Both the position numbers and the translations under genes were made by a program. The notes under the pieces were generated by a model. The model searched no databases. It was not told where the DNA came from and saw only the letters and a list, made by a program, of their open reading frames with translations. Positions 45,851 to 64,000 of a stretch of DNA of 64,000 nt are shown one piece after another; positions within the stretch are counted from its first letter, which is position 1; the number at the start of each line of letters is the position of its first letter. The stretch lies in IMG/VR virus record IMGVR_UViG_3300048502_000015, positions 64,001 to 128,000 of that record. One strand, given 5' to 3'. The stretch is from a virus. Lineage: Duplodnaviria; Caudoviricetes.

Positions 45851-45852
45851 TC

Positions 45853-47564: not shown

Positions 47565-47565
47565 G

Positions 47566-48344: not shown

Positions 48345-48356
48345 TATACTATAGAT

Positions 48357-49514
48357 ATGAATATTAAGCCAATGAAGGCCCAAGCCGTTGATGTTCTTCC
48401 TGATGGTCCGTACATCATGGAGCCGAAATTTGATGGCTGGCGAGCACTTGCAGTCTCGACTCAAGCTGGCGTCATCCTCTACACGAATACCGGCAAGACC
48501 ATCGATTCGGTTCCCTATATCAACGACGCTCTGAAGAACCTTCCTGTCGGGACCATTGTAGACGGCGAGATTGTCGATCTTGCTGGCGATACCCAGTGGA
48601 ATCGGACGCAGACGATTTGTTCTCGTTATGCCGCTCATGTTCCTACCGCTTCTGATCCGGCTCTGAGCTATGTCCTTTTTGACATTCTGGCTCTTGGAAT
48701 GGTGGACTACAAGAACGAGCGTTTGGGTTTCCGGAAGTCACGTTTGGACGACCTATTTCGTCTTCTTTCTCTTGGCGGCGTCATTGGACAGGTTCCGACC
48801 TGGGATGTCTCGCAAGATGTCCTCGACCACCTTGTTATTGTTAAGGGGTTCGAAGGCGTTGTTTGCAAGCACCTTGATTCTAAGTACGTCCCCGGTTCTC
48901 GCAATCGTGGCTGGGTCAAGATCAAGCCTTACAAGGAGATCGACGTTCTTTGCACCGGAACTTTCCCGGCAAAAGAGGGAAGCAAGTACGACGGCAACGC
49001 CGTTGGCGGAATCACCTTCCGAGTTGTCCATGAAGATGGAACGGTCTACGAGGATGGACAGGCTGCCGGGATGGACGACTTCCTTCGAACGGACCTTTAC
49101 GACCATCCCGAGAAGTATGTCGGGCGCGTTGTTGAGATCAAGCATTGGGGAATTGGCAAGGATGGAGCGTTGCGTCATCCTAACTTCTACCGATTTCGTG
49201 ATGTGGCCGATAAGGGTCCTGCGGAGCTTCCTCAACCATCCGATGTCCCGCATGTTATGATGGCAGTTGGAATCTTGTCTGGGCGGGACGTTATCAAGAT
49301 CGAGAAGCCAAAGAAGGTTGCTCCGGTCCTTGGAAGCGGTCCTTCAGGTCGTATGAGGAACTATAAGGCAATGGGAGATCCTAAGCTGCTGATTGCCCTT
49401 GCCGAGCTTCGTGCAGGCGTAGGAGACTCTTACGACAGGGCCTTGAGCGGTTCAGGAGATCCTGCTGCCGATCTAAAAGTTGCCGAAGCTGAAGCTGCCG
49501 CCCGTGGATTGTGA
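48357..49514 (+). CDS. ATP-dependent DNA ligase
   Basis: EPKFDGWR (motif I), DGEI, FDIL, EGVVCK, WVKIKP and LRHPNF; leaderless after TG-A-TATACT. Confidence 0.93.
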   Translation: MNIKPMKAQAVDVLPDGPYIMEPKFDGWRALAVSTQAGVILYTNTGKTIDSVPYINDALKNLPVGTIVDGEIVDLAGDTQWNRTQTICSRYAAHVPTASDPALSYVLFDILALGMVDYKNERLGFRKSRLDDLFRLLSLGGVIGQVPTWDVSQDVLDHLVIVKGFEGVVCKHLDSKYVPGSRNRGWVKIKPYKEIDVLCTGTFPAKEGSKYDGNAVGGITFRVVHEDGTVYEDGQAAGMDDFLRTDLYDHPEKYVGRVVEIKHWGIGKDGALRHPNFYRFRDVADKGPAELPQPSDVPHVMMAVGILSGRDVIKIEKPKKVAPVLGSGPSGRMRNYKAMGDPKLLIALAELRAGVGDSYDRALSGSGDPAADLKVAEAEAAARGL

Positions 49515-49526
49515 TATACTTAAGCT

Positions 49527-50111
49527 ATGACAAATCAACCACTACTTGGCCGTTGTAAGGAATGCGATTACGCTCTCTTTGCTACCGACGAGGATCTCGT
49601 TCAAGCTGAGAGCTTCCGCGATATCAAGCAAACCGGAGTTGTTTATCGGATGCTGCTTCCGCTGGAGGCTTTCTTTGCCCGTTGTCCTCAACGGCATAAG
49701 GTCTTTGTTCTCAACCGCATCAAGGGAACCTACTCCAAGGACCACAAGTGCGATGCTCGTTGTCTGAATGCAAAGGGCCACGATTGTACTTGTTCTTGCG
49801 GCGGGGCTAATCATGGACGCGGACATACAGCCGTCCATGTGGCTACCGAAAAGGTCCAGCTACTTGTTGGCGAAGTCGGAAAGACCATCCGTGGAACAGC
49901 TAAGGTCGCCAGCAAGCGCGATATCACAGATGCCACTCTCTACACCTTTGTAAATCCCGCTGGGACCGTTACCATCAAGTGGTTCGCTCCTTCTTACGCC
50001 AATCCGGATTACGCGATTGGCCAGGAAGTGAACTTCCGCGCTCGTGTAAAGAAGCACGAGGACAACGAATACGGTAAGGCGACCATCGTGACATACCTGG
50101 AGGAAGTATAA
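49527..50111 (+). CDS. Cys-rich zinc-binding protein with a C-terminal OB fold
   Basis: CDARC...CTCSCGGANHG; FRARVKKH...TIVT; leaderless after TG-A-TATACT. Confidence 0.7.
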   Translation: MTNQPLLGRCKECDYALFATDEDLVQAESFRDIKQTGVVYRMLLPLEAFFARCPQRHKVFVLNRIKGTYSKDHKCDARCLNAKGHDCTCSCGGANHGRGHTAVHVATEKVQLLVGEVGKTIRGTAKVASKRDITDATLYTFVNPAGTVTIKWFAPSYANPDYAIGQEVNFRARVKKHEDNEYGKATIVTYLEEV

Positions 50112-50992
50112 TGATTCGAAGAATAGCTTTTATATCAATCTCGTGGGTAGCCACTTTTCTCGGACTATTAACGGTTCATTATATTGTCGCTGCTCTTGGA
50201 TTATTTTTCCTACTTAGTGGGTTTTATTCGTGGGATAATTATGCGATAAATCGTACTTTGGGAACAACTAAGAAGCGGCGATCCAAAGTAGACTACAACT
50301 ACCTATATGAGCTTGAGGAGGCCAACGGGTTTACTCATCTATACGACAGAAAGGGTAATCAGATTCAGGAGCCGGTTCCTCTGTCAGATACAGTCTTGAA
50401 AAAGATCGAGGCTAACAAAATGAGAACGCAAGATTTTCTTAAGGATCAAACTCCTCACGAAAGAAGACTGGTCGCACAGAGAAAGTTGGAAGAACTTGAA
50501 GACAACTATAAGGCTCAAAGGATTCTTATGGAAAGTATCGAGAAATATGAGGATTCAATTGCGCGGGGCCTTGCCGCTAACACTCAGTTCTTTCTAAACC
50601 GAGATAAGACATGTCATATCTGCGGAGGAAATCTTCGGACAATATATAGGGTTTCGGAACTTCCTGGAGCAGCTACATATACCAGTTGCTATCTATGTGG
50701 ATCTCATTTTAAGAATGGCCGTAAGGTGGGACAAGAGGGATCTCCTGTTAGGATTAGCGAAACCCATTACGACAATGTTCTAAACGGCTTGTCGCCCGAT
50801 GGTACTCGCCGCGAGGGAAATCCGCTGCCAAAACTTACACGGCAACAAAAGGATGAATCTATGCTCAAAACTCTTCATGAGAAGAACCGTCAAGCCTGGA
50901 GCAAAGAAGGTCTATATGTGGGCGAAAGCCATTACGACTACGACAACGATGGACGCCTTATATGGCGCGAGTCGATGGTAAGGAAGGATTAA
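50111..50992 (+). CDS. Membrane-anchored hypothetical protein with a zinc ribbon
   Basis: N-terminal TM segments; CHIC...CYLC. Confidence 0.65.
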   Translation: MIRRIAFISISWVATFLGLLTVHYIVAALGLFFLLSGFYSWDNYAINRTLGTTKKRRSKVDYNYLYELEEANGFTHLYDRKGNQIQEPVPLSDTVLKKIEANKMRTQDFLKDQTPHERRLVAQRKLEELEDNYKAQRILMESIEKYEDSIARGLAANTQFFLNRDKTCHICGGNLRTIYRVSELPGAATYTSCYLCGSHFKNGRKVGQEGSPVRISETHYDNVLNGLSPDGTRREGNPLPKLTRQQKDESMLKTLHEKNRQAWSKEGLYVGESHYDYDNDGRLIWRESMVRKD

Positions 50993-50993
50993 A

Positions 50994-51260
50994 ATGTCTA
51001 ATACAATTGTAATCAAAATTGCCCTCCACGGATTCAATGCCGACAACATCGAGTACATTATGAATGGACCGGGTTGGGAGGGCTTTACCGAAAGAGAAAA
51101 GATTGCCGGAGTTCTAGGATTGATTGATTCTACTGGACCGGCCCTGGTACTTGCTCCCGCAGGGACTCAAGATGATTTCAAGTCAACGGCGTTTGACGGA
51201 ACCATTCTTGATTTGAGAATTGAAAATCGACCAGAATTGGATGAAGAAGATGACGACTGA
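50994..51260 (+). CDS. Hypothetical protein
   Basis: 88 aa; AAGGA RBS. Confidence 0.65.
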   Translation: MSNTIVIKIALHGFNADNIEYIMNGPGWEGFTEREKIAGVLGLIDSTGPALVLAPAGTQDDFKSTAFDGTILDLRIENRPELDEEDDD

Positions 51261-51705
51261 TAGCCGACCAGAAACCCTAAAGCATATTGTAAAGGTCATG
51301 AACCTCCTCGAAGAGGTAGTGGACGAACTTCATTTGCGTGCAAAGTACCACGACAAGTCAAAGCTTGCCTCTCCCGAGGTAGAAGTCTTTGACGAATTCA
51401 CTGATAGGCTTGCGGATAGTGAATACGGCAGCGATGAGTACAATGCTAATCTGGAGGCGATGAAGCCTGCTCTGGACCACCACTATGTCGCCAATCGTCA
51501 TCATCCTCAGCATTGGATAAACGGTATCCGAGGTATGAGTCTAATCGATCTAATCGAAATGCTAGCCGATTGGAAAGCGGCTACTCTTAGAAACAAGAAC
51601 GGCAATCTTGCAGAATCCATTATCCAGAATGCTGAACGATTTGAATACGACGATCACATGGTTAATCTGCTTCTTGAAACCGCCCGAGACATGGGTTGGT
51701 TGTGA
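51250..51705 (+). CDS. HD-like domain protein (DUF5662-like)
   Basis: H...HDKSK...HHYVANRHHPQHW...DLIEMLADW. Confidence 0.75.
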   Translation: MTTDSRPETLKHIVKVMNLLEEVVDELHLRAKYHDKSKLASPEVEVFDEFTDRLADSEYGSDEYNANLEAMKPALDHHYVANRHHPQHWINGIRGMSLIDLIEMLADWKAATLRNKNGNLAESIIQNAERFEYDDHMVNLLLETARDMGWL

Positions 51706-52340
51706 TAATCAACTTACTTAACCACGTACTGTTTGTCTTTGGGACCGATCAAGTAACGTCGGCAGAGATCCTTGGGTTCATTACAGGAATCGCTTGCGTC
51801 TATTTGGTTGTCAAGGAGAACGTCCATAACTTCTGGATCGGCATTCTCAATGCCGCGTTCTTCTTGATCCTTTTCTTGAACGCTCGACTTTATGCCGATA
51901 GTGGCCTTCAAGTGATGTTTATCGTTCTCAACGCCATTGGCTGGTGGGCTTGGCTCAAAGCCGGTCCTAACAAGACTCCGTTGAAGATCAGCAACGGTCG
52001 CAAATGGGAATTGCCAGTGATCGGGATATTGGTTATCGGAATTACCGCGATCCTCTATCCGATTCTGCTTCATATCCACGATATCGCTCCCTGGTGGGAT
52101 GCCGTTACTACGGGACTCTCTGTAGGCGCTCAGTTGCTCCTTAATTGGAAGAGAATTGAGAACTGGTATATCTGGATTGCCGCAGACCTGATTTATATTC
52201 CACTGTACTTTTACAAGAACCTGTACTTAACGGGAATCGTCTATATCGGCTTCATTACTCTTTCTTGTATTGGACTTGTCGGATGGATGGCCCGAAAGAG
52301 AATTCAGAATGCCAACTTGCCAGTGTACGAATCAATCTGA
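51702..52340 (+). CDS. pnuC: Nicotinamide riboside transporter PnuC
   Basis: Multi-TM; EILGFITG, LYAD..LQ, GWWAW, WDAVTT.LSV.AQ.LL..KRIENW..WI..D. Confidence 0.93.
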   Translation: MIINLLNHVLFVFGTDQVTSAEILGFITGIACVYLVVKENVHNFWIGILNAAFFLILFLNARLYADSGLQVMFIVLNAIGWWAWLKAGPNKTPLKISNGRKWELPVIGILVIGITAILYPILLHIHDIAPWWDAVTTGLSVGAQLLLNWKRIENWYIWIAADLIYIPLYFYKNLYLTGIVYIGFITLSCIGLVGWMARKRIQNANLPVYESI

Positions 52341-52356
52341 TAGACTAAGGAGAGAT

Positions 52357-52695
52357 ATGAGTTACAGCGATAAAGAATTTCTAGAAGCAGTTAGGGACCG
52401 CCTCCTTGAAAAGGGCTGGCATTCTGGTAGGTTAGGGGGTCCTGATGGACCCAACTGCCTCGTCGGAGCAGCGATCTGGACCGATCCTCCAGAAGGGATT
52501 AAAGATGGTTGCTCAGAGGACCCGGGAGTTTACTTTGTGGTTAATGGAGAAGATTTCGTAGCAAAAGATGACAAGAATAGTAAAAGACTAGCTAGGCTTC
52601 TTGGTAGGAATTCCGTTTGGGATCTTATTTGGGCGCAGGATACTTGGGGCCAACATCGGGTAATAGCAACTCTGAATGAGGCCATAAATGCCTGA
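52357..52695 (+). CDS. Phage protein (DUF6197-like)
   Basis: GWHSG...CLVGA motif; AAGGAG RBS. Confidence 0.6.
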   Translation: MSYSDKEFLEAVRDRLLEKGWHSGRLGGPDGPNCLVGAAIWTDPPEGIKDGCSEDPGVYFVVNGEDFVAKDDKNSKRLARLLGRNSVWDLIWAQDTWGQHRVIATLNEAINA

Positions 52696-53548
52696 TATAG
52701 ACCTAGTAATCACATGGCCTAAGACTCGCCCTCTGTACTCCTATTTGAGAGAATTGTCGAAGGCCCAGGATGCTGGCGAGCTAATCAACTATAGAATTGC
52801 GCGGCCTCCTAGTGACGAATGGCGTTTGCAACTTGCCTATAGAAGTGCTCGTTGCTTTATAGTCCATGACGGGTTCATTCAAGGCTATAACCGGATTAGA
52901 GGGATTGAAGAAAAGGGAGAAAACGAGGTAACCGATCCGATTACCGGAGCATTCTGGCCTTCTGGTTGGTACATCGTTCGAGAACCAGAATGGCATCCTA
53001 TTGAGCCGATCCCGATGAAGGGATTCCGTGGCTGGCGTTACTTTGATACTCTGGAACCAGAGAAGCCCGTAGAAAGATGGACGGCAGAAGACTACGCCAA
53101 ATACTACGAGAACCCGGAGAAAATTGACTATCCGTGGATTCCAGATCAAGCAGAGATTGCCGATCCGTGGAATCCTTCGGATGAAGAGATTCAGGAGGTT
53201 ATTGACATTTTCGATAAATCCTTTCTCGGGATTGAACTAGAATCAGAACGGCTTGTTGACTGGAATCCAATTTTTGAGGAGCCAACTAGGGTCAAAAAGT
53301 ATAGGAAGAAGCCGGTTGTCATTGAGGCGCTTCTTTTAGATCACCTTACGCCGCTTGAGGATCTTCTAGATTTTCTCGGAGATACTCCATTCGAATTCGA
53401 TGATGCTGGAATCGACATCCCTACTCTCGAAGGGATCATTCACGCAAGTCCCGGAGACTACATAATTAAGGGAATCCAAAATGAGTTTTATCCCTGTAAG
53501 CCGGATATTTTCCATCAGACCTATGAGTTGGTAGAAGATGTCAGTTAG
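52688..53548 (+). CDS. Fusion of a PUA/ASCH-like domain and a PGDYG-type phage domain
   Basis: PIPMKGFRGWRYF; KYRKKPVVIEA...IPTLEG...PGDYIIKG...EFYPCKPDIF. Confidence 0.6.
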   Translation: MPDIDLVITWPKTRPLYSYLRELSKAQDAGELINYRIARPPSDEWRLQLAYRSARCFIVHDGFIQGYNRIRGIEEKGENEVTDPITGAFWPSGWYIVREPEWHPIEPIPMKGFRGWRYFDTLEPEKPVERWTAEDYAKYYENPEKIDYPWIPDQAEIADPWNPSDEEIQEVIDIFDKSFLGIELESERLVDWNPIFEEPTRVKKYRKKPVVIEALLLDHLTPLEDLLDFLGDTPFEFDDAGIDIPTLEGIIHASPGDYIIKGIQNEFYPCKPDIFHQTYELVEDVS

Positions 53549-53708
53549 TATGCAAAACAAAAGAGGAGAATGGGTTCCCGCCGTTCCTCTACCGTTTTTC
53601 TACTTTCGCAAGAAGTGTTCTTGCGGCCAGAAATTCTGGACATTAGATGGATATTACGGCCACTATGCCTGGACACACATTCTGCTAGGAGAAGAAGATG
53701 TTTCATAG
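53538..53708 (+). CDS. Small C2H2-like zinc finger protein not in the ORF track
   Basis: MSVSMQNKRGEWVPAVPLPFFYFRKKCSCGQKFWTLDGYYGHYAWTH...; fills the gap. Confidence 0.55.
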   Translation: MSVSMQNKRGEWVPAVPLPFFYFRKKCSCGQKFWTLDGYYGHYAWTHILLGEEDVS

Positions 53709-53886
53709 ACATAAGTGGACCGTTCTAAAAGTACAGCACGGAACACGCGCTTGGATTAGAACACGAGATAATTCAAAGACCGGACAATCTGAAGAATGGA
53801 CACGATCATATTTAAGATGTGAATGTTCTAAAACTAAAGTAAAGGATCAACCGGGCCGCTGGACCCTAGAGGAACTTCAAGGATGA
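53698..53886 (+). CDS. Small hypothetical protein
   Basis: HRHKW...CEC pattern; AGGAG upstream. Confidence 0.55.
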   Translation: MFHRHKWTVLKVQHGTRAWIRTRDNSKTGQSEEWTRSYLRCECSKTKVKDQPGRWTLEELQG

Positions 53887-54947
53887 AACACGGACTTGTC
53901 ATAGGAAAGTTCTACCCGCCTCATGCGGGCCATCATTTTGTGATCGATAAAGCCGTTTCAGAATGTGATTTCGTAACGGTAATCTGTCTCTATTCCGTGA
54001 CAGAGGGAATCGATCCAAGTTTGCGTTTCCAGTGGCTCTGTAACCGCCATCCTGATGAATCCAAGGTCTACATTATGACGGCCCAGGACGAATTCCCGGT
54101 AGATTATGATAGCCCAGAGGCATGGGATAATCATGTTGGAATCATGAAGAAATACCTTCAGGAGAGCGTCATCGGAGATCCCGATCCAATTACTGACGTG
54201 TATGGATCGGAGGAATACATTCCGGAATTGGCTCGCCGTTTTGATGCTATTCCTCATGTGGTTGATCTAGAACGGAAGTTCTTTCCTGTCTCGGCTTCTG
54301 CTGTCCGAGAAGATCCTGGAGCCAACTGGCAGTTTCTAGAGCCAGATGTACGCGCTTGGATTGCTAAGCAACGAAAGGTCGTCTGCATCGGGGCCGAATC
54401 TTCCGGGACAACTACTCTTGCTAAGGATCTTGCCAAAGATTTTGGGACAGCTTTCGTTCCCGAATATGGCCGAATCTATTCGGAGGGCCTTGGACAGGAT
54501 CATGTATGGACAAACGAAGAGTTCTTCCATATCTTCGAAATGCAGAAGAAAATGGAGGATCAGATTGCTCGACAGGTTTCTTCGCCGCTTCTTATTTGCG
54601 ATACCGATTGGTTCGCAACTCAAATTTGGCAGCAATATCTTGTCAATCCTACTAGCGACGAGTTCTGGGATAAAGGACTGCCACAATCTCCTTCAGGTGA
54701 TTTTCCGGAGCTTTATATCCTGACGGATCTTTGTCCTTGGGAAGATGACGGAACCCGCGTTGGGGAAAGTTTCCGAGAAAGGATGCAATACGATTTTCGA
54801 TTCTGGCTAGAACACGAAGAGAACCCGATTCCCCATATCTTTGTAACCGGGGATAGATATGATCGTCTATATAAAGCCAATGCTGCCATAGTCGAACAAG
54901 TACTCCTCAAGCCTTTTGATTGGCCGCTTCCCTTGGAGGAGAAATGA
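53883..54947 (+). CDS. nadR: NadR-like bifunctional NMN adenylyltransferase / nicotinamide riboside kinase
   Basis: GKFYPPHAGH (HxGH), VSASAVR, GAESSGTTTLA, PEYGR, LICDTD and WEDDGTR; no N-terminal HTH. Confidence 0.92.
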   Translation: MKHGLVIGKFYPPHAGHHFVIDKAVSECDFVTVICLYSVTEGIDPSLRFQWLCNRHPDESKVYIMTAQDEFPVDYDSPEAWDNHVGIMKKYLQESVIGDPDPITDVYGSEEYIPELARRFDAIPHVVDLERKFFPVSASAVREDPGANWQFLEPDVRAWIAKQRKVVCIGAESSGTTTLAKDLAKDFGTAFVPEYGRIYSEGLGQDHVWTNEEFFHIFEMQKKMEDQIARQVSSPLLICDTDWFATQIWQQYLVNPTSDEFWDKGLPQSPSGDFPELYILTDLCPWEDDGTRVGESFRERMQYDFRFWLEHEENPIPHIFVTGDRYDRLYKANAAIVEQVLLKPFDWPLPLEEK

Positions 54948-55144
54948 ATCTAGTCTACTTTGGGGACGGCCCTCTATATCGAAAGACTCAAACCTATCCT
55001 GATCCTGCACCGAGACTAATTGTGACTATGCGTAGAAAGGACCTTCCGATTATGATCAACTACGATGGCCACTACGATCCCTTTTATGATTACGAAGAAA
55101 TCTTTTACGAGCGCGTAGGATATCTATACAAGGTCAAGAAATGA
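54944..55144 (+). CDS. Small hypothetical protein
   Basis: GGAGG RBS; ATGA overlaps. Confidence 0.55.
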   Translation: MNLVYFGDGPLYRKTQTYPDPAPRLIVTMRRKDLPIMINYDGHYDPFYDYEEIFYERVGYLYKVKK

Positions 55145-55545
55145 GTAAGCCGTATATCCACGCGAAGTCCTCGGCCAAAAAATGGGGAGGAGTCCCAGAA
55201 GACTATCTTGAGATTCACGATCTGATGGATAGTTCTAAAGCCGTCTTCCCCGATAATCGGCATCGAGCTTTGACTCATAACAACTGGTTTATCTTCATTG
55301 TCGAAAAGATCTACGGCCACAATATCACTAATTCATCTGATAGACTGGTAAGTGTTAGGGATATTGTGGAGCAGCATATCCTTGAAGATTTTGGAGGAAA
55401 GTTCATTCCGACTCCGCAAGATTACTTAGAAAACATGGAGTTCGTCCCGTGGATGAATAATGCCATTGAAGGCGCTCCCCCAAGTCACAGAAAACTACAG
55501 GCAAAATCACAAACAATAAGAAGGGTGGCGTTTACACTTGACTAG
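55141..55545 (+). CDS. DUF6915-like phage protein
   Basis: PYIHAKSSAKKWGG..EDY..IH..MDSSK...RHRALTH...EQHILEDFG. Confidence 0.7.
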   Translation: MSKPYIHAKSSAKKWGGVPEDYLEIHDLMDSSKAVFPDNRHRALTHNNWFIFIVEKIYGHNITNSSDRLVSVRDIVEQHILEDFGGKFIPTPQDYLENMEFVPWMNNAIEGAPPSHRKLQAKSQTIRRVAFTLD

Positions 55546-55984
55546 CTCAGACAAAATAGAAGCATTGAAGACTCGCATCGCAGGATTGCAGGAACAGCTT
55601 CGAACAGAATCAAAAAGCGCTTTTACGGAAGGCTCAAAGGATTTCTTCGAGCGGTATCCGAATCTAGACTCGTTCGGATGGACCCAATATACTCCGTACT
55701 TTAATGACGGAGAGCCTTGTGAGTTCCAGGTCCGTGCTGATAACGATTGGGACTTGCGCATCAACGGGGAACGTCCTGGGGAAAGCGATCAATGGGAGTA
55801 TATCCCCGGCACATACGAGAAAACCCATATTGCCCATCCTGAGCTACACGATGTGGCAGATGAATTGAGCGAATTCATTTACGCAATTCCAGAAGAGGCC
55901 ATGAAGTCAATGTTTGATGACCACGTAACGGTTACGGTTCATCGTTCAGGAGAAGTCGAAACAGAATACTATGAGCACGAGTAA
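55538..55984 (+). CDS. Conserved-looking phage protein (partner of the DUF6915-like gene)
   Basis: WTQYTPYFNDGEPCEF motif. Confidence 0.65.
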   Translation: MTSSDKIEALKTRIAGLQEQLRTESKSAFTEGSKDFFERYPNLDSFGWTQYTPYFNDGEPCEFQVRADNDWDLRINGERPGESDQWEYIPGTYEKTHIAHPELHDVADELSEFIYAIPEEAMKSMFDDHVTVTVHRSGEVETEYYEHE

Positions 55985-56105
55985 TCCCGACAATCCCGAT
56001 GATTGGCCATCTTGGGAAGAACTAGATCTTCATGTCGATCGCGTTCAGCAAATTCCTTGGGCTAATCAAGAACAACGGGATGGGACTGTACTCGCATAGA
56101 CGGCC

Positions 56106-56141
56106 TTGACAGAAGGATAAATCGGTTCTATAATAGTTGGG
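56106..56141 (+). promoter_or_regulatory. Perfect consensus sigma70/sigmaA promoter; leaderless
   Basis: TTGACA (56106-11), 17 nt, TATAAT (56129-34), then 7 nt to ATG 56142. Confidence 0.88.
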
Positions 56142-57380
56142 ATGCATTTTTGCGCATATCATAACGAGGATCATCCGGTTGACCGTTTTCTGATAAAGAA
56201 AAACGGAAAGCTGGATTCCTGGTGCCACGAAGGACGGAAAGAATACAATCGGGAATATTCTAAGAAGTCCTATGCCCCGATTAAAGAAGAAGTGGCCGAA
56301 AAAATTGGGGCCAGAGAAAATCGGACAGAACAGGTTTGCACAATTTGCTCTGTCAATAAATCAATTGAAGATTTCCGATTCCGATATGACCGCCCTGATA
56401 AACGGGAGTCAAGGTGCATTCCCTGTCTTAAGATCATTAGGCGTAGCGAACAACAAATTGACTCTCTAAAGCACGCCGATAAAAGAGGAATTACAAGACG
56501 TAAATGGCAAGCTGCTCATCCGAGATACAACGAACAATCTAGTCGTACTCGTCGGGCACGAATGAAGGTCGTAAGGCGAGAAAGATACACTAGAAAACAG
56601 GTTAGAGAACGGGATAACGGTTTATGCTGGTTCTGTAATCTCCCGGTTGATCCTAGTCTGAAGTGGCCAGATCCTCTTTCAGAAGTCGTTCATCACCATC
56701 ATCCGATTTCTAAGAAGGGACCAGACTGTTTAGAAAATGTAGCGTTGGCTCATAATGAGTGTAACGGACATCATCATGCCAAATATGAATCTCCATTCCT
56801 GAATTGGTCGGTAATCTCTATCGACAATGCGTTAGCGAGAAAGACGGCTGTAGAGAATCACTATCTCCATCGAGCGCCAAACGTTTCATTCGGATTTGGT
56901 CTTTACTCTCCCGAGAACAAACTCCAGGGGATCGTGACATTTGGATCACCGTCGTCAAATCGCATAACTAAATCGGTGTGTCCGAATAACGATTGTAAAG
57001 TCATTGAACTTAATCGTCTTTGGATAGACGACACTACTCCATTTGGAGCCGCCTCTTGGCTTGTGTCTCGCGCCCTAAAAGAGTTGCCGCCGATGATCAT
57101 CGTATCCTATGCCGACACAGATATCGTTGATTCTAGAAACGAGAGAAATCACGATGGATCAATCTATCGTGCTCTTTCGTTTGACTACGCTGGGCAATCT
57201 AAGGCCAAAACTGAATATCGAATGCCCGGAGGGACAAGAAACGTTGGGAAAATTACTCCTGGATCAGTCAAAAGCAAAATTTCATCTAAGAAACGTTTTT
57301 GGACTGTTACGGGAAATAAACGAGAAAAGCGTATCCTGAGGGATATCTGCAACTGGAATTCTCTTCCATATGAGCAATAA
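56142..57380 (+). CDS. Zinc finger-HNH endonuclease fused to a Mom-family (GNAT-fold) DNA modification domain
   Basis: RDNGLCWFC...HHHHPISKKG...ENVALAHNECN (HNH), followed by ENHYLHR, GIVTFG.P, IELNRLW, VSYAD and HDGSIYRA.SFDYAG (Mom-like). Confidence 0.8.
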   Translation: MHFCAYHNEDHPVDRFLIKKNGKLDSWCHEGRKEYNREYSKKSYAPIKEEVAEKIGARENRTEQVCTICSVNKSIEDFRFRYDRPDKRESRCIPCLKIIRRSEQQIDSLKHADKRGITRRKWQAAHPRYNEQSSRTRRARMKVVRRERYTRKQVRERDNGLCWFCNLPVDPSLKWPDPLSEVVHHHHPISKKGPDCLENVALAHNECNGHHHAKYESPFLNWSVISIDNALARKTAVENHYLHRAPNVSFGFGLYSPENKLQGIVTFGSPSSNRITKSVCPNNDCKVIELNRLWIDDTTPFGAASWLVSRALKELPPMIIVSYADTDIVDSRNERNHDGSIYRALSFDYAGQSKAKTEYRMPGGTRNVGKITPGSVKSKISSKKRFWTVTGNKREKRILRDICNWNSLPYEQ

Positions 57381-57406
57381 AAAGGCCCGCTTTTGGCGGG
57401 CCTTTT
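57378..57406. terminator. Bidirectional intrinsic terminator
   Basis: AAAAGGCCCGC-ttttg-GCGGGCCTTTT between the HNH-Mom and capsid genes. Confidence 0.88.
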
Positions 57407-57428
57407 AGGTTTACTATCGAATCGAGTT

Positions 57429-58520
57429 CTAAAGAACCCAAGTTCCAGGTGATCCGTTTCCAAGACCGGAGATATCCAATTTTGAAGGAGCGGCTGTTGA
57501 GTCTGCTTTCAAAATTCTAGAGATTCCTCTAGGATTTAGAATTAACATTCCTACGAGCTCGTCCAGGACCCAACCCTTGTAAAACTGCTCTACCTGATGA
57601 TTCTCTTCAACATCAAGAGAGTACATGACAGGGAAGACGCCGATGAATTCAGGTTCAGCCGTTAGGAAGATTTCTCCTTGAGGCACGATGATTGATCGCT
57701 GGATCTGGAATTCACCGAAGGAAGTGATTCTTCCGCCTGCGAAAACTTCGTCCTTGAATCGGAATCCAGTTACGTTAAGGTCCCATGTGTAAAGGTCGCG
57801 GATATCTGCCGGATGAGCAAGAACTCTACGAGCCTCTAGCTGGTTGATTTCAATCTGCGTTACCGCGTTGTAGAAATCAGCCGGTTCTAGTGGGTTACCT
57901 GCACCAAGGAGCACAGTATGCTCGTTTGGAGCCGATGCTGGACCAGAAGCGATTCCTGTTGCAAGTCCACCCGTTGGGGCAAGACCGACAACTCCGTTGG
58001 AGATCGCTGTTCCAAGACCTGTTACCGCCTGCTCAAGAAGAAGGATCAAACGAGCATCCTCCTGCTTCTGAATAGCCTGACGGGTTTCGTCCTGGGCATA
58101 TTCAACCGCGTTAACTCTCAAGAAGTAAAGGTCTTCCTTTCGGATTCTTGGGAATGAGGCAATTCTGAACAACTGAGGGAAAGCTTGCTTTCCTTCGAAC
58201 GGAGTAATCTTTACTTCCGCATCGGTTGAGTTAAGAACATAAGCCGTTCCAAGGTCGTCCAAGATGTCGTAAGGCATAAGTGGTCCGCGTTCCAATGTAT
58301 CTTCTACAAGAACGTTTCGCACGATTCCTTCATAACGAAGACGAATCTGAATAGGACCGATCATTCCTTGACCAATTCTCTGAAGGGCATTACCCTTGTC
58401 TGCAAGAATAGCTTCTAGACGGCCTACCTTTTGCTTTCGAGAAAGCTTAGGAAGATCCTTTAGCTTATTTTCATAGTCGGCTGACGCTACAGCCTGACGT
58501 GAGTATAATTCATAAGACAT
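57429..58520 (-). CDS. Major capsid protein (HK97 fold, Bxz1/E3-like)
   Basis: GQGMIGPIQIRLRYEGIVRNVLVED...YDILDDLG...ITPFEGK...FRIASFPRIRKEDL recalls cluster C mycobacteriophage major capsid proteins. Confidence 0.88.
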   Translation of the reverse strand: MSYELYSRQAVASADYENKLKDLPKLSRKQKVGRLEAILADKGNALQRIGQGMIGPIQIRLRYEGIVRNVLVEDTLERGPLMPYDILDDLGTAYVLNSTDAEVKITPFEGKQAFPQLFRIASFPRIRKEDLYFLRVNAVEYAQDETRQAIQKQEDARLILLLEQAVTGLGTAISNGVVGLAPTGGLATGIASGPASAPNEHTVLLGAGNPLEPADFYNAVTQIEINQLEARRVLAHPADIRDLYTWDLNVTGFRFKDEVFAGGRITSFGEFQIQRSIIVPQGEIFLTAEPEFIGVFPVMYSLDVEENHQVEQFYKGWVLDELVGMLILNPRGISRILKADSTAAPSKLDISGLGNGSPGTWVL

Positions 58521-58533
58521 TAGAAGTTATTCC

Positions 58534-59118
58534 TTATATCGTTAGGTTGATGGTTAGCTGGGCTGAACTTGGTCGGCTAACAATCCAACCTACGGAGATT
58601 GCTCCACCGCCTGGGTTAGTAATACCAAGTCGTCCATCTGTTTGTGCGTATAGATATACGTTTGTTCCTGGACCTGCTGCTGCGATTGCTGCGGCAACTC
58701 CTGTATCGTTCCAAGCTGGGGCAAGAAGCTGGATTAGAGAATCCGGGCCTCTCCAAGCCTGTACTTCATTGATCTGGGTTAGCTGGCCGAATGTGCCACC
58801 TAGCCATGAACCAAGAAGTCCGAAAGGCTGCTGTGCTGCTGCTGCTCCTGTTGCTACAACAACGTTTTCGTTGGTGCTCTTAATGAGAACCGTTCCGGGG
58901 ACGATAGATCCCTGAAGTGTGAATACGTTTGCTGAACGAGCAATCGGAGTAGTATCAGTAGACTGCGGAATACGGAAGTTTCCACTTGAGTCTCTGAAAG
59001 ATGTCTGGTCAAGGTAGCACGCATAAGGAGTAGCCTGTGTTTGACCATAGAGTACTCTTAATAGGCGCTTTTGAGCCGTGATGTTGATGTTTGAAGCATC
59101 ACCGTAAATTGTCTGCAT
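58534..59118 (-). CDS. Capsid decoration/minor capsid protein
   Basis: Between the scaffold and major capsid genes; IVPGTVL...PFGLLG. Confidence 0.65.
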   Translation of the reverse strand: MQTIYGDASNINITAQKRLLRVLYGQTQATPYACYLDQTSFRDSSGNFRIPQSTDTTPIARSANVFTLQGSIVPGTVLIKSTNENVVVATGAAAAQQPFGLLGSWLGGTFGQLTQINEVQAWRGPDSLIQLLAPAWNDTGVAAAIAAAGPGTNVYLYAQTDGRLGITNPGGGAISVGWIVSRPSSAQLTINLTI

Positions 59119-59171
59119 TAGTTTCCTATTGTTCCTTTTAGATTTATAGGTAAGCGCCTTGCGCTAGTCCA

Positions 59172-59191
59172 TCACACATTTCATAGACGGA
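59172..59191 (-). promoter_or_regulatory. Variant late promoter for the capsid genes
   Basis: tcC-gtctatg-AAAT-gtgt-GA, followed by an AGCGC-aag-GCGCT leader hairpin. Confidence 0.45.
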
Positions 59192-59212
59192 CCTAGTACA
59201 AATTAAAGTACT

Positions 59213-61819
59213 CTACCTTGTAAACAGCGCCGAATCGATCACTGAGTTGTCAACTGGCTGGTTTTCCTGGCTATCGACTCCAGCCGTAATATGGTCAAAT
59301 CCACGAGATGCTGCTGTAGACTTACCAAATAACGACGGTAGACGGGAAACTCCTCCTGCGCTAGCAGTACGAGATGCCTGTTGTCTTAGGCTTGCGGTTT
59401 TAACCTTGGCCAAAGTATTTGTTTGGGCTTCTAGAGCCTCTGGGCTTTCGCCTTCCAATTCTGCAATACGATCATACTTCTGATCCTTAGGGATAAGTCC
59501 CATTTCAACTTCGGTATCAGCAAGCTTAATTGCATTGATGAAGTGTGCAGTAACTCCGTCACTCTTGGTAACTTCCTTGGTGACCGGATCTTGCTGCTTG
59601 TAAATCTTGTTTCCATCGGTTCCCGACCATGTGGTTGTCGGACCAGAATTGTTTGATGGGCTATTGACGGCCTGAAGAACGTCTACACGATCTCCTGCCT
59701 TTCCGATTGGATCAGATGGCTGAGTACCCTGGTTGGCGCTTCCTGGCTTAATGTCCTGAAGATCTCCAACGCCGTCCTCATAAGCAACCTTGGACTTAAC
59801 ACCCTCGTTTGATGCAGGGAATGGCTCTGAGGTTACTGGGCTAGTAACTCCCTTTTGAGTTCCATCAGAATCTCCGAAAGTAGAGGTAGGTCCGCTATCT
59901 TCCTGATTCTTGGTTGTATCAAATCCTGCGTTATCGGTCTTGGTAGAAGGAATTTCTTCCGTCTTGTCTGCCTCAACGTCTGAGACTCCAGTTGTTCCGA
60001 TTCCGGTTACATCGATCTGTGCATCGGCCTTTGAAGCCGCTGCGTTATCTGCTTGGTCTACTCCACCGACGCCTATGACATCAACTCGCGTAGTTGGCGA
60101 AGCGTCGTCTGGTGACGGTCCCTGAGCGTTTCGTTGACTCATATTTTCTCCTTGTGCCTTGGCAATTAAGTGTCGGGCGGTAAGCATTGCTGCTGTGACC
60201 GGAGTGGATTGATCACTCGTCACAGTCTCTTTAGATGGTTCGTTTGAAACAGGCTTGGACACAACCTGTACAGGAATTTCGCGCTGATTAATTCTTCCCG
60301 CTACCTTTTGATGCACATATGGTGTCCAATTCATTTCACCTTTTACATTAGCGGTAGGCTGTCCTTTTGTAGCCTGCTCGTTCTGGATCATGCTTCCCGG
60401 CTTCTTTGGTTGACTATCAGGATCGGCCTGTTCTCCCGGAGGCGGACCATTTTCATCACTAGGAATGGTTACCTCATCTCCGGCTTCCATTTCCTCATCA
60501 ATTTTCTTTGCCTTGTCTAGATCCGGGTTGTCAAATCCCTTAGGAGGCTTAACATATCCACAAACATCGCAGGTTTCTCCCTGAACATCTGAGCCACAAA
60601 TCGGGCAGATACTTTCTTGTCGCAAAGTATCTACTTCTTGAGGAGCGGTTGTCTCCATAGATTGAGGAAGTGGGTTTTCAGCTTGCTTTCTAGCAGCCGT
60701 TTTAGTCTTCATTTCGTCTTCAAAAGTTCCTTGATGTACGGGACCTAATAATCCTAGCTGTATAGATTTATCTAGACGAGGAATAACTTCGTGTTCATCA
60801 ATGTTATTTGGAATTGTCGCTCCGTCATCTCCACGATTAGGGACTGTAAGAAAACCCTGTCCTTGACAGGTTGGGCATGATGGTCCAAGTGGATTTTCAT
60901 GACCGTTACATGTAGGGCAAGCTATAGAATTCGAAATTTCGTTATTAGAAATATCCCTTTCTGGAATTTGATAATCGTATTCACCATGAGGAAAATGAAC
61001 GTTTTCGTCCCCTTCCTTCTGAATAGAAGAAATGATTTCCTTAGTCAAAGCCGTTTCATCGGCAGGCTCGAATACTCCTGATAGCTCAAAGAACTGGCAT
61101 CCGAAACAATTTTCGTAGCTCTTCTTTGATGTACGATGGCCGTCTGCCGTCTTAAGGTCATGAGTAGCCCCCTTAGACTGGACATGGAAACAATATTCCT
61201 CTGGCGAAGAAGCGATATTTCCACAATGAGAACATTTGGATCGTTCTACATTTGCTCCCATTGAGAATCCGTCGATTTCTCCATCCTTAACCGCCTTGGC
61301 AAACTTAGGAAATGACTTGGCATCGATTTCTAGAAGAAGCTCGATATGAGTCGGCGGAAGATGTTCGGGGTCAACATCAGATGATGAATAGTACGGATCA
61401 AGGGAGGCCGTTTTGGAATCAACTGGCTCAACGATAAGCTTGGCGTCAACAATGACTCCACGAGCACGCTTAGGATCAGAGTTATGATGGTCTACAAAGA
61501 TCGGCTTGCCGATAAATGTAGCGAAACCATACTTCTTGTCTCCGTCCTTAGCCTCAACTGTAAATCCGGTTGAAGACTGCTTCTGGTGTCGTTCGAAGAT
61601 CTCCTTGGAACCGGCAAGTTCAATCGATGGCCATCCGTCATGGTTCTTGTTAACCCTAGAGCTAATGGCTCTTACGCGGGCATAGAGATACTTCTGCCCC
61701 GTTCGATAGTTCTTGTATTCCCCGACCTTATCGAGCGAAGCCGTCTTAAGTCGGGTAGAACTTCCCTTTATTTCAAGGACACTAGATGATTCGATTGATC
61801 CGTGCTTTGTTAATGCCAT
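59213..61819 (-). CDS. Prohead protease/scaffold polyprotein
   Basis: NKNHDGW, TFIGKPIFVDH, RARGVIVD, GFSMG...CSHCG, FFELSGV.EPAD protease core; zinc ribbons; long acidic scaffold tail. Confidence 0.8.
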   Translation of the reverse strand: MALTKHGSIESSSVLEIKGSSTRLKTASLDKVGEYKNYRTGQKYLYARVRAISSRVNKNHDGWPSIELAGSKEIFERHQKQSSTGFTVEAKDGDKKYGFATFIGKPIFVDHHNSDPKRARGVIVDAKLIVEPVDSKTASLDPYYSSSDVDPEHLPPTHIELLLEIDAKSFPKFAKAVKDGEIDGFSMGANVERSKCSHCGNIASSPEEYCFHVQSKGATHDLKTADGHRTSKKSYENCFGCQFFELSGVFEPADETALTKEIISSIQKEGDENVHFPHGEYDYQIPERDISNNEISNSIACPTCNGHENPLGPSCPTCQGQGFLTVPNRGDDGATIPNNIDEHEVIPRLDKSIQLGLLGPVHQGTFEDEMKTKTAARKQAENPLPQSMETTAPQEVDTLRQESICPICGSDVQGETCDVCGYVKPPKGFDNPDLDKAKKIDEEMEAGDEVTIPSDENGPPPGEQADPDSQPKKPGSMIQNEQATKGQPTANVKGEMNWTPYVHQKVAGRINQREIPVQVVSKPVSNEPSKETVTSDQSTPVTAAMLTARHLIAKAQGENMSQRNAQGPSPDDASPTTRVDVIGVGGVDQADNAAASKADAQIDVTGIGTTGVSDVEADKTEEIPSTKTDNAGFDTTKNQEDSGPTSTFGDSDGTQKGVTSPVTSEPFPASNEGVKSKVAYEDGVGDLQDIKPGSANQGTQPSDPIGKAGDRVDVLQAVNSPSNNSGPTTTWSGTDGNKIYKQQDPVTKEVTKSDGVTAHFINAIKLADTEVEMGLIPKDQKYDRIAELEGESPEALEAQTNTLAKVKTASLRQQASRTASAGGVSRLPSLFGKSTAASRGFDHITAGVDSQENQPVDNSVIDSALFTR

Positions 61820-61838
61820 CGTTCATTACACAACCGAA
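61819..61838 (-). promoter_or_regulatory. Putative late promoter; leaderless
   Basis: ttC-ggttgtg-TAAT-gaac-GA(TG). Confidence 0.65.
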
Positions 61839-61851
61839 TGTGCTATACTTA

Positions 61852-62046
61852 CTACTCTTCGTCGCCAAAGACTAAATCAATGATCAATTTCTCGGCATCA
61901 TAAGAGAGAGATTTAAGAGTGGCAATAGCCCCGCGTTCCTGCTTTTCTGGCAAGCCAACGGCTTCAATAAACCCAGCCAAACGGCCACGCATACGATTCA
62001 TTTCTTTGCGGATCTTTTCTTCAACTATCTTATCTTCTTCGTACAT
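61852..62046 (-). CDS. Small hypothetical protein
   Basis: GAGGA RBS before ATG 62046. Confidence 0.55.
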   Translation of the reverse strand: MYEEDKIVEEKIRKEMNRMRGRLAGFIEAVGLPEKQERGAIATLKSLSYDAEKLIIDLVFGDEE

Positions 62047-62101
62047 GTCTGATTCCTCGCTGGAGCGAGCATCTTTTCTTACGCTATTGGCCATGTGCGG
62101 T

Positions 62102-62908
62102 CTAGTAGATCGAAAGGGATGCGGTAATTCGAGCTTCGTTATCTTCTCCACGAATTTCTCGAATTTGCTTTACCTTGAATCCAGCTTCGGCAGCCAAACT
62201 ACGAAGTTCAGCCTGAGCCTCATCCATTGAGTTAGTTCCAAGAGGCTCATTAACTCTGAATGAAGCAACCTTTCCGGCGATATGAGCAAACGGATTAGTT
62301 GAAGCAAATGCCGGAGCACCTAGAGGAGTTCCACCGCCAGGAGTATCTCCCGGATGAAGAGGATGCTTAGTATCGCCCGGAGGAGGACCGCTTGGCGGAC
62401 CAGGAGGGCCTGCATCAGGACCAGGAGGCGGTGGACCGTCATCGCCAGGGACAGGACTATCGGCTGGATTTCCGCCGGGAAGCTGGACACCAAGAGCTAG
62501 ACATAGAGCCTGAAGCATTTGATGGACTTCAGTAATCTCCTTGTGCTCTCCACCCTTGTCGCCCTTTTCCTTCTTAGGCTTATCTTCGCCTGAGTCGTCA
62601 CCTTCGTCGGAACCGTCATCAGGAGATGGAGGACCATCAGTTTCGGGAGCTTCGTCGGACGGATCAGAATCCGGAGGACCATCACTAGGAGGCGGTCCAG
62701 CCTCTTCCTCGCCGCCTGCTGGAGGGAATGGCGCAGCAACCGCGATAGACGCAACCCAGCGACCCTCAACATCTTCAACGTTGAAATCAACATTACCAGT
62801 TTTAGGGAAATCGGGATGTTGCTTCAAGCCTTCAATAGCTTGAGAACGAGTGTACTTCGAGGTATAAGGGCCAGGGATTAGATAACTTGTAACTTTGGTT
62901 TGAGCCAT
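62102..62908 (-). CDS. Pro/Asp-rich late protein (probably head-associated)
   Basis: Low-complexity linker; late motif atC-acgaaag-TAAT-acac-GA at 62929-62910. Confidence 0.7.
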   Translation of the reverse strand: MAQTKVTSYLIPGPYTSKYTRSQAIEGLKQHPDFPKTGNVDFNVEDVEGRWVASIAVAAPFPPAGGEEEAGPPPSDGPPDSDPSDEAPETDGPPSPDDGSDEGDDSGEDKPKKEKGDKGGEHKEITEVHQMLQALCLALGVQLPGGNPADSPVPGDDGPPPPGPDAGPPGPPSGPPPGDTKHPLHPGDTPGGGTPLGAPAFASTNPFAHIAGKVASFRVNEPLGTNSMDEAQAELRSLAAEAGFKVKQIREIRGEDNEARITASLSIY

Positions 62909-62955
62909 ATCGTGTATTACTTTCGTGATTTGGTAGTTTTGATAGTGTTAGGTCT

Positions 62956-63177
62956 TTAAGTTCCGACTTGACCACTACCAGGAAGGTTGATGATCTTAGG
63001 ACCAACTGCCCCTGTTCGACTATAACGGTCGGTTTCTGGGGTTCGTCCTGATCGCTCTTCGCTTAAGGTATAATGACGCTGCTGTACTGGGGCTTTGCCG
63101 TGGCAAATTCCACATTCTGCAAATGGAATTCCTACTCTGCCGCAAACGCCGCATTCGGTTTCTTCTTGTTCTGACAT
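62956..63177 (-). CDS. Small zinc-ribbon protein
   Basis: CGVC...CGIC; AAGGA RBS. Confidence 0.6.
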   Translation of the reverse strand: MSEQEETECGVCGRVGIPFAECGICHGKAPVQQRHYTLSEERSGRTPETDRYSRTGAVGPKIINLPGSGQVGT

Positions 63178-63196
63178 TACTTTCCTTACTTGTTGT

Positions 63197-64000
63197 TTAT
63201 AAACCGAAGACTAAATGTGCTTCGGGGGCGTTTTCGCCATTAGCTTTTCCGGTACTATCCCACTTGGTTTCGTAGTGGGTGTGGCTCAAGTCCAAAAGGT
63301 CTGAGTTACGAGCCAATCCTTGTTCGTCAATTAAAGCTCTCTGTTCTGCTGGAGAATGCTTTCTTCCAGACGTTCTGAGAAATTCTTCTGCGTTTTGCTT
63401 ATTCTGTCTCAAGCGTTCGCTGATTTCTGCAAGACGAGGATCTTTGGCTGCGATATCAGAAATGTTTCTGGAAGAAGTTCCCGAAGCTCTCATTTGAGAG
63501 GCCCGATCCATCCCGGCCCAGAAATCATCCTGACCGTTACTTTCGTTTAGCCAACTTAGGTCAATACTTGACTGGTGCCCGTAATCTTCGATTGGGGTTT
63601 CCCAAACTTTCTCGCATCTATAGCAAGTGTGCATTTCTCGTGTTTCGGAGGCATATCGGTGTTCGATATCATGGCTTGAACATTTTGGACAAACATCAGA
63701 ATCAAACTCGTATTGGCCTACAGAAGATATTGCCGTCTGACTCGGATAGCTATTTTCTACCTCATCGGTTGTCTGACTTGCTGGACCAACTTGAGACTGG
63801 CCCGGAGTTGTTGGAGGCGGCTGTTGATCTTGTTGTTCGTTCTGAGTCGGAATAAACGTAATTGAATCCATCTTAGCCCGCTGTTGAGTAAGCTTGATGT
63901 CGGGGGAGTTATCGCCCTGTTCATTACTAAACTGGCCAACAAGCTTTAATCCGACTTCATTTGGATGGATGAATACGACCTTAACGATATCCGGAATCTC
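63197..64000 (-). CDS. Head-region protein, 5'-truncated by the window edge
   Basis: The frame of 63197..63871 stays open to position 64000; CPKC...CYRC. Confidence 0.7.
   Translation of the reverse strand, partial: EIPDIVKVVFIHPNEVGLKLVGQFSNEQGDNSPDIKLTQQRAKMDSITFIPTQNEQQDQQPPPTTPGQSQVGPASQTTDEVENSYPSQTAISSVGQYEFDSDVCPKCSSHDIEHRYASETREMHTCYRCEKVWETPIEDYGHQSSIDLSWLNESNGQDDFWAGMDRASQMRASGTSSRNISDIAAKDPRLAEISERLRQNKQNAEEFLRTSGRKHSPAEQRALIDEQGLARNSDLLDLSHTHYETKWDSTGKANGENAPEAHLVFGL

Follow-up and report, generated by a model that had tools for sequence, protein, structure and literature searches.

A zinc-ribbon HNH nuclease fused to a Mom-family DNA modifier, and its putative exchange around the head genes of a ~160-kb phage lineage

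What use would a phage have for a protein that joins a DNA-cutting domain and a DNA-modifying domain in one chain? This question is raised by a gene, here called HNH-Mom, that lies within a 64,000-nucleotide (nt) stretch of phage DNA, referred to as the window, which comprises bases 64001-128000 of a 160,424-bp IMG/VR virus record rated complete by CheckV. The gene specifies a 412-amino acid (aa) protein in which two zinc-ribbon-like repeats and an HNH nuclease core precede a Mom-family GNAT domain, and it is situated beside the gene for the major capsid protein. A previous sequence-only reading of the window had put forward three explanations, namely (a) a restriction-modification (R-M)-like enzyme that marks self DNA and cuts DNA lacking the mark, (b) a homing endonuclease that immunises its own site, or (c) a nuclease fold repurposed to target the modifier. 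We utilize a combination of domain, fold, phylogenetic and gene-neighbourhood analyses to weigh these explanations. The account that we favour, with a probability of about 50%, is that of a nuclease cassette, of a homing or competitive kind, to which a putatively self-protecting Mom modifier is fused and which is accessory and horizontally exchanged in a lineage of uncultured ~160-kb phages.

Domains and homologs of the HNH-Mom protein

Both halves of the protein are encoded by a single open reading frame (ORF) with no stop between them, as the sequence-only reading had stated, and the motifs NHYLHR, ELNRLW, SYAD and HDGSIYRALSFDYAG on which it had relied are all present in the translation (Table 1). 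An AlphaFold2 model of the protein has a predicted local distance difference test (pLDDT) score of 85.8. The C-terminal half is recognised by Pfam Mom (PF25680) at residues 222-359 (E 7.5e-24; 85 bits against a cut-off of 27.1) and by the Mom-like PHROGs family phrog_1384 (1.6e-29). The Mom protein of phage Mu (PDB 8bv8) is retrieved when the family profile is compared with PDB (E 1.5e-12), and it is also the best Foldseek match of the model (E 2e-11). VIA-align likewise places 8bv8_B first, with Z 18.5 and a root mean square deviation of 2.9 A over 177 aligned residues (model residues 215-412), as compared with Z ~12 for other GNATs. Sequence identity to Mu Mom is 32% across 146 residues, and H240, Y241, R292, S305, D325 and Y342 occupy the positions of Mu H58, Y59, R111, S124, D149 and Y159. 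These six residues are almost universal among 141 Mom-like domains and are kept in 40-41 of the 42 members of the clade.

The chemistry of Mu Mom has been described by Silva et al. (2026, PMC13219725), who report that glycine is transferred from Gly-tRNA(Gly) onto N6 of adenine in double-stranded DNA (dsDNA) and is then rearranged on the base. Residues R111, S124, R151, H58, Y59, D149, Y159, W48 and W181 are important in the Mu enzyme, with R111, S124 and R151 being essential, and a helix-turn-helix (HTH)-like insertion at residues 175-209 is needed for activity (PMC13219725). In the fusion protein Mu R151, W48 and W181 are replaced by D327, A230 and a gap, respectively, and the same three positions are likewise unconserved in 99 other Mom-like domains. 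Position 154, which is Arg in Mu, is His in all but one of the Mom-like domains compared. All of these differences are common to stand-alone metagenomic and mycobacteriophage-type relatives. As judged from this distribution, R151, W48 and W181 are marks of Mu's own subgroup and not of PF25680, and the domain is by its sequence a bona fide Mom-family member of a large non-Mu subfamily, with a predicted modifying activity. As a candidate counterpart of the Mu HTH-like insertion, the model has extra strands and a helix at residues 356-402, and chain residues 20-241 are covered by the structural alignment, which does not resolve individual residue pairs.

Conservation in the nuclease half was assessed, as elsewhere unless another set is named, from an alignment of 22 full-length homologs. 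The two N-terminal zinc-finger-like repeats noted previously are upheld by this alignment, with the first ribbon having a conserved C4-x2-H7...C28 arrangement and the second having C66-x2-C69...C92-x2-C95, in which C66 and C92 are invariant and C69 and C95 are at least 90% conserved. In the model this N-terminal module consists of beta-hairpins followed by helices, and residues 1-125 are presumed to be a DNA-binding and targeting module. The HNH core is detected by Pfam HNH (PF01844) at residues 182-214 with a score just over the cut-off (E 1.2e-4; 22.5 bits against 21.4), and by endonuclease VII (EndoVII) and HNH families of PHROGs at residues 59-232, where several HNH families match down to 1e-15. 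Comparison of the family profile with PDB retrieves 4h9d, an 'HNH endonuclease' (E 2e-4), and also McrA (6ghc). No variation is seen at C162, C165, H185, P188, H204, C207 or N208, and conservation at N199 is 90% or more; of these, C162, C165, H204 and C207 are assigned as zinc ligands, H185 as the general base, and H185, N199 and N208 as the catalytic set. The sequence-only reading had cautioned that HH in place of the usual DH might make the nuclease defective. This concern falls away because the conserved His is the second of the pair, the invariant H185, and because N199 and N208 are kept. Its assignment of HNH and Mom domains holds at the level of Pfam, PHROGs, PDB profile and fold matches, with 4h9d as the profile counterpart of the HNH half and Mu Mom 8bv8 as the profile and Foldseek counterpart of the Mom half.

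Table 1. Features of the HNH-Mom locus, in window coordinates
Feature	Position	Strand	Basis or remark
Sigma-70-type promoter, TTGACA-17 nt-TATAAT	56106..56134	+	12/12 match; -10 ends 7 nt before ATG
Zinc-ribbon x2 - HNH - Mom fusion (P0001)	56142..57380	+	Uninterrupted 412-aa ORF; Pfam, PHROGs, homologs
Pair of zinc-ribbon-like repeats, with a long helix after each (residues 1-125)	56142..56516	+	Conserved C/H; model
HNH (His-Me finger) nuclease core, HNN variant, with CCHC zinc site (residues 126-220)	56517..56801	+	Alignment, Pfam, PDB profile
Mom-family GNAT domain (residues 221-412)	56802..57380	+	Pfam, PDB profile, Foldseek, VIA-align, residues
GC-rich hairpin GGCCCGC-TTTTG-GCGGGCC, A-run and T-run at its sides	57384..57402	.	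Predicted bidirectional terminator, common with capsid gene
Major capsid protein gene	57429..58520	-	phrog_2522 at 3e-93; conserved left border of variable slot

A search of 5.8 billion proteins returned about 30 full-length homologs that keep both halves at 39-64% identity, so that the existence of further HNH-Mom fusions, which the sequence-only reading had thought worth looking for, is established. These homologs are on independent contigs from several sources. Some variants have HTH repeats as their N-terminal module (P0013 and P0025), while in others the nuclease scores as Endonuclease_7 (P0038 and P0071). In a tree of Mom domains, those fused to zinc-ribbon (ZnR)-HNH, HTH-HNH or EndoVII nucleases form one clade with 99% support that takes in 37 of 40 N-terminally fused rows. 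From these sequence comparisons the fusion is taken to be real and old. That the fusion might stem from chimeric assembly, or be no more than the appearance of a decaying pseudogene, can be regarded as a negligible possibility, since the same architecture, with no stop between the halves, is retained in about 30 independent metagenomic homologs and since both halves have a residue conservation indicative of purifying selection. Searches by tblastn with the full protein and with an EndoVII-Mom relative gave Mom-only or nuclease-only matches and no cultured phage covering at least 80% of either query, and megablast of window positions 50000-64000 against 50,697 phage records gave zero matches. 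Paralogues of the zinc ribbon, HNH and Mom modules were sought across the 160-kb genome and none was found, and the 412-aa protein has zero matches to PADLOC defence models.

The nuclease chassis is also found without a modifier. The same zinc-ribbon module, at 50-55% identity, heads free-standing HNH proteins of ~200 aa (P0093, P0101 and a protein at locus L077), with 50% identity across the first 115 residues. A related condition is approached by P0018, a 433-aa protein from a 13.7-kb ENA contig. Its HNH residues are intact, but H, Y, R and Y are gone from the Mom site (with DV for HY, S for R and F for Y), making it an apparent natural 'Mom-dead' variant.

These observations bear on explanation (c), in which the HNH/zinc-ribbon half would be an accessory of the modifier, a binding or nicking module that delivers Mom or opens the DNA for base flipping and has no role in attack or mobility. 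The linker from HNH to Mom is short (~10 residues) and conserved, with the motif SPF..W between N208 and V224, which counts in favour of this explanation. Furthermore, the Mu dimer residue W48 is missing (A230), and the N-terminal half might substitute for dimer-based DNA binding. The closest solved HNH structure by sequence, 4h9d, belongs to a zinc-ribbon HNH group that includes nicking enzymes (Xu and Gupta 2013, PMC3592412). Yet H185, N199 and N208 are conserved, although decay of these residues would be tolerated in a module that only binds DNA, and W48 is absent from stand-alone relatives as well, so that its loss is not specific to the fusion. The chassis, moreover, exists alone as ordinary free-standing nucleases. 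With catalytic and zinc-ligand residues invariant or nearly so among homologs that are only 39-64% identical, a role limited to targeting is disfavoured, and we consider it unlikely.

Location, variable surroundings and a second GNAT partner

The tail-to-tail arrangement with the capsid gene described in the sequence-only reading is correct, with HNH-Mom on the plus strand converging on the capsid gene on the minus strand. To place this arrangement in context we surveyed 80 loci that encode relatives of the major capsid protein, many of them ending short of the slot that lies 3' of this gene. The head module, composed of an 868-aa gene, a cement gene and the capsid gene, is syntenic in nearly all of the sufficiently long loci. 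Within it the capsid gene is by far the best conserved, its product being 67-94% identical in 78 of the 80 loci as compared with 27-87% for the neighbouring cement and 868-aa genes, and it is a candidate landing or target region. Highly conserved genes are the type of site that free-standing homing endonucleases favour.

The nuclease-Mom gene is sporadic in this collection, being present only in L022 and in L026/27/29/68, with many of the other loci ending before the slot. In three complete relatives with 84-92% capsid protein identity (G001, which has terminal repeats, G002 and G003), a genome-wide search for the Mom domain found none, and homologs of the ZnR-HNH half are also absent from G001 and G003. 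Where relatives do carry the gene, it is always within or beside the head module, in a place and orientation that vary. It is 3' of the capsid gene and convergent with it in the window and in L003, 3' and co-directional in L006 and L008, and in L009 it is flanked by the cement gene and a large head gene with an intein; insertion beside capsid genes, which the sequence-only reading had proposed to look for, is therefore seen in L003, L006 and L008 and is replaced by another position in the head module in L009.

The history of the gene also differs from that of its neighbours. Locus L022 has the nearest head genes (capsid 86%) but the most divergent nuclease-Mom protein (38%), while L008 has distant head genes (capsid 55%, cement 26%) but a nuclease-Mom protein that is 50% identical. 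Similarly, L009 and L022 have capsid proteins that are 91% identical and yet contain different nuclease types at different sites. By these sequence comparisons the nuclease-Mom phylogeny is incongruent with that of the head genes, and the gene is judged to be accessory, dispensable and horizontally exchanged. Sporadic presence in close relatives, a position bordering a conserved gene and a phylogeny incongruent with the flanks are among the features by which homing genes are recognised, and HNH-Mom has all three.

A packaging function would be another reason for a nuclease to adjoin head genes. HNH enzymes with zinc ribbons frequently lie close to cos sites and terminase genes (PMC3592412), and HNH-Mom could be a terminase helper like HK97 gp74 that became incidentally fused to Mom. 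Absence from complete close relatives indicates that the gene is not essential for packaging, its neighbour is a capsid gene and not a terminase gene, and its place and orientation vary. We therefore disfavour a packaging role as very improbable.

What lies beyond the capsid gene is itself changeable. DNA homology between genomes stops ~10-50 nt past the capsid stop codon, giving a sharp border on the capsid side only, and in the L029 lineage it resumes ~3 kb past the capsid gene. Genomes differ in what the slot contains, which is frequently another HNH gene. For example, the slot of L077 encodes a 199-aa protein that shares the zinc-ribbon module (55% identical) but differs in its HNH core and lacks a Mom domain; L023 has an HNH_3 protein; L012, L028 and L030 have ~220-aa proteins with weak matches to HNH-annotated PHROGs; and L044 has a methyltransferase. 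The head genes harbour other insertions as well. Hint/intein domains occur in the large head gene upstream of the cement gene in L003:11765-15418, L006:2709-6023 and L009:8439-12662 (1104-1407 aa), and in L010 the homolog of this gene is interrupted by ~1 kb, while its counterpart in the window (59213-61819, minus strand, 868 aa) is without Hint/intein domains. The head module is thus a general hot spot of selfish elements.

A further occupant of the slot, a 462-aa protein at L041:1062-2450 on the minus strand (P0212), has the ZnR-HNH chassis attached to a different C-terminal domain of 160 residues (residues 300-462). This domain belongs to phrog_24928, has no Pfam match, and contains motifs in a Mom-like order (HYSR, FRNE, SS, TFVD, PG..F..AGF). 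Its model (pLDDT 85.6) is matched by Foldseek to GNATs at E ~4e-4 and to 8bv8 at 1.9e-3, and a profile-profile comparison of the domain with the family alignment was not significant. On the strength of predicted fold and motif order we assign it a GNAT fold. The same domain is present in P0145, P0096 and P0213-P0216, where it is N-terminal in some proteins, and in P0215 it is fused to a Dam-type methyltransferase (PF02086), which makes it, by sequence, a candidate for a further DNA-modifying GNAT family. That two different GNAT domains occur on one HNH chassis argues for functional coupling of nuclease and modifier. Separately, a 110,292-bp phage contig apparently encodes both P0038 (EndoVII-Mom) and P0213 (ZnR-HNH with the second GNAT domain), to judge from the identical length of the longest contig for each protein, and we infer from it that several nuclease-GNAT cassettes may occur in one genome.

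Promoter, terminator and nearby genes

The perfect promoter attributed to HNH-Mom by the sequence-only reading is real, and it is the sole 12/12 match in the whole 160,424-bp genome, where ~0.06 would be expected by chance (both strands, three spacer lengths). Because the -10 element ends so close to the ATG, a leaderless mRNA is expected. Hexamers resembling a -10 element are also present 6-8 nt before the start at the homologous loci L022, L008, L077, L041 and L006, while at L003/L026 such a hexamer is absent at that spacing and the gene overlaps the stop of the upstream ORF. We considered whether a leaderless promoter might be special to the HNH-Mom cassette and rejected this idea, as a hexamer resembling a -10 element stands 6-8 nt ahead of the start in 9 of the genome's 141 long ORFs. 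This number compares with ~1.3 expected (matches of 5/6 or better) and suggests, from sequence, a phage promoter class that yields leaderless mRNAs. What is unusual in the HNH-Mom promoter is only its perfect -35 element; leaderless-type starts elsewhere in the genome mostly have an extended -10 (TGnTATACT) without a -35. Four plus-strand sites in the window (4250-4276, 45935-45963, 48335-48359 and 49505-49529) have an extended -10 of the form TG(a/c)TATA(C/A)T that ends 6 nt before the ATG, with no -35.

The hairpin downstream of the gene had been described as the gene's own terminator, a description that our comparison does not sustain. Its folding energy is -19 to -21 kcal/mol on either strand, and each of 14 relatives inspected has an equivalent GC-rich hairpin with a T-run behind its capsid gene, irrespective of whether the HNH-Mom gene is present. 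DNA homology with the Mom-less locus L012 also extends through the hairpin. Since an equivalent follows the capsid gene in every one of these relatives, the hairpin is best viewed as the capsid terminator, used from both sides.

Just upstream of HNH-Mom are plus-strand genes for a NadR-like nicotinamide-nucleotide adenylyltransferase (53883-54947; phrog_3462, AAA_28) and a DUF6915 protein (55141-55545), and genes for NAMPT and NUDIX proteins are nearby in a relative (L006:13148-15500). This phage lineage appears to carry auxiliary genes for the salvage of nicotinamide adenine dinucleotide. ARAGORN identified 35 genes in the whole genome, comprising 34 tRNAs and a transfer-messenger RNA (tmRNA). 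A tRNA block at genome bases 43751-57430, upstream of base 1 of the window, includes two tRNA-Gly genes (tcc and gcc), and the phage-encoded tmRNA (genome 55385-55783) has the tag AGDSLLALV. Two tRNA-Gly genes among 34 are not specific evidence for a modification that depends on Gly-tRNA(Gly).

Proposed cutting, marking and moving

The favoured account of a mobile nuclease cassette can be laid out as four steps. Transcription from the gene's own strong sigma-70-type promoter would give a leaderless mRNA. The zinc-ribbon/HNH half would then bind DNA and presumably cut or nick it, and the gene would act in the manner of a free-standing homing or competition endonuclease settled at the 3' flank of the highly conserved capsid gene, its pattern of mobility being shown by comparative genomics. 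The Mom half, to judge from its residues and fold, may modify adenines of dsDNA by Gly-tRNA(Gly)-dependent N6-carbamoylmethylation in analogy with Mu Mom. Finally, the mark would be expected to shield the genome that carries the gene against restriction by the host, and probably against the HNH half itself, so that the cassette would be both selfish and useful.

Several observations weigh against this account. A clean presence or absence of the single gene between two conserved flanks was not found, the right flank being itself variable over 0.8-3 kb. A co-conversion signature was sought in the C-terminal tip of the capsid protein and none was present, as the tip follows capsid phylogeny and not the presence of the gene. 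Gene composition is unremarkable, with no clear foreign signature found when one was looked for (43.8% GC in the gene versus 46.8% in the genome). In Mu, Mom works in trans on any DNA present in the cell, which leaves discrimination of self from target a problem. Finally, P0018 retains the HNH residues with four of the six conserved Mom residues lost and the L077 nuclease has no modifier at all; together they imply that self-protection by Mom is not obligatory for every chassis. Explanation (b) of the sequence-only reading gains support from the comparisons. Absence from close relatives, a varying place and orientation, an incongruent phylogeny and the presence of other HNH genes in the slot speak for homing, while the lack of a clean insertion or deletion and of co-conversion does not.

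Explanation (a) invokes no homing and holds that the protein is purely a single-chain R-M-like weapon, in which Mom marks phage DNA and HNH degrades unmodified DNA of the host or of superinfecting phages. The same domain logic has been predicted for fusions of Mom with restriction endonucleases (PMC7824862). It would account for the conservation of both active sites and for the repeated attachment of two different GNAT domains to one nuclease chassis, and the consensus sigma-70 promoter suggests strong expression by way of host polymerase. It leaves unexplained, however, why the location in the head module is constant while place and orientation vary, and why modifier-less HNH genes occupy the same slot. 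In addition, a post-replicative Mom would mark host DNA too, as plasmids are modified in vivo by Mu Mom (PMC13219725), and P0018 has lost Mom residues and kept HNH. We view such a weapon as possible rather than probable. Equally tentative is a bolder form of the mobile-cassette account, in which the gene would be a self-immunising phage gene drive. Here HNH would cut the capsid flank or other sites of rivals, Mom would mark the carrier's own sites by means of charged tRNA, and the chassis would swap at least two GNAT modifiers, amounting to a single-chain, non-methyl analogue of R-M in phage-phage conflict.

Free-standing homing endonucleases such as SegG and MobE are found in T4-like phages, and we know of no such enzyme that has a DNA-modifying domain in the same chain. 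Type IIG/IIL R-M enzymes such as MmeI are single-chain proteins of cellular defence in which methylation dependent on S-adenosylmethionine is combined with a PD-(D/E)xK nuclease. By analogy, HNH-Mom would also cut and mark with one polypeptide, differing in that it would be phage-borne and would pair an aminoacyl-tRNA-dependent GNAT with HNH. The C-terminal 190 aa have the fold and the six residues of phage Mu Mom (PDB 8bv8, PF25680). In contrast to the Mu protein, which is stand-alone, late and controlled by Com, this domain is fused to a nuclease and placed behind a consensus promoter. Phage zinc-ribbon HNH endonucleases (Xu and Gupta 2013, PMC3592412; PDB 4h9d) likewise have one or more N-terminal zinc ribbons before a CxxC-type HNH core; they lie beside cos sites and terminase genes and carry no modifier, whereas HNH-Mom is dispensable and Mom-fused. 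It resembles free-standing homing endonucleases and the competitive phage endonucleases treated by Birkholz et al. (2024, PMC11620839) in being sporadic, in bordering a conserved essential gene, in having its own promoter and in its incongruent phylogeny.

The closest precedent is computational. Iyer, Anantharaman, Krishnan, Burroughs and Aravind (2021, Viruses 13:63, PMC7824862) predicted Mom-endoDNase fusions in jumbo phages and proposed that momylation shields the DNA of the phage, with the nuclease directed at host or superinfecting DNA. Those proteins likewise unite nuclease and Mom in one polypeptide. They differ in having domains of the restriction-endonuclease fold (PD-(D/E)xK) and in coming from phages of >200 kb, whereas the nuclease described here is of the zinc-ribbon HNH or endonuclease VII type and is in a 160-kb phage. 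The location at the capsid flank and the homing-like mobility of HNH-Mom are not described in that study (PMC7824862). It follows that the novelty of an HNH-Mom cut-and-protect pair was overstated by the sequence-only reading; the idea itself keeps a place among the possibilities, as a prediction already published in 2021 (Iyer et al., PMC7824862). What is added to existing knowledge is the HNH flavour, mobility at the capsid flank and an alternative GNAT partner, and not a new category. We found no experimentally tested nuclease-Mom fusion in the literature searched, and fusions are not mentioned in the experimental Mom literature that was examined.

The chemistry of Mom, with a glycine from charged tRNA that is rearranged on the base, has only recently been worked out (PMC13219725), and this family offers a compact test case in the form of a single gene for a 412-aa protein. 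It comes with natural controls, as L077 has no Mom, L041 has another GNAT-fold domain and P0018 has a decayed Mom site. New enzymes that nick or cut in a sequence-specific way and respond to adenine hypermodification may also be obtained from the family. In this lineage, the 3' capsid flank serves as a hot spot of selfish nuclease genes. If it is true that the two halves form a cut-and-protect pair, then HNH-Mom would be a phage-borne analogue of R-M that uses a bulky, non-methyl adenine mark and that apparently spreads in a homing-like manner.

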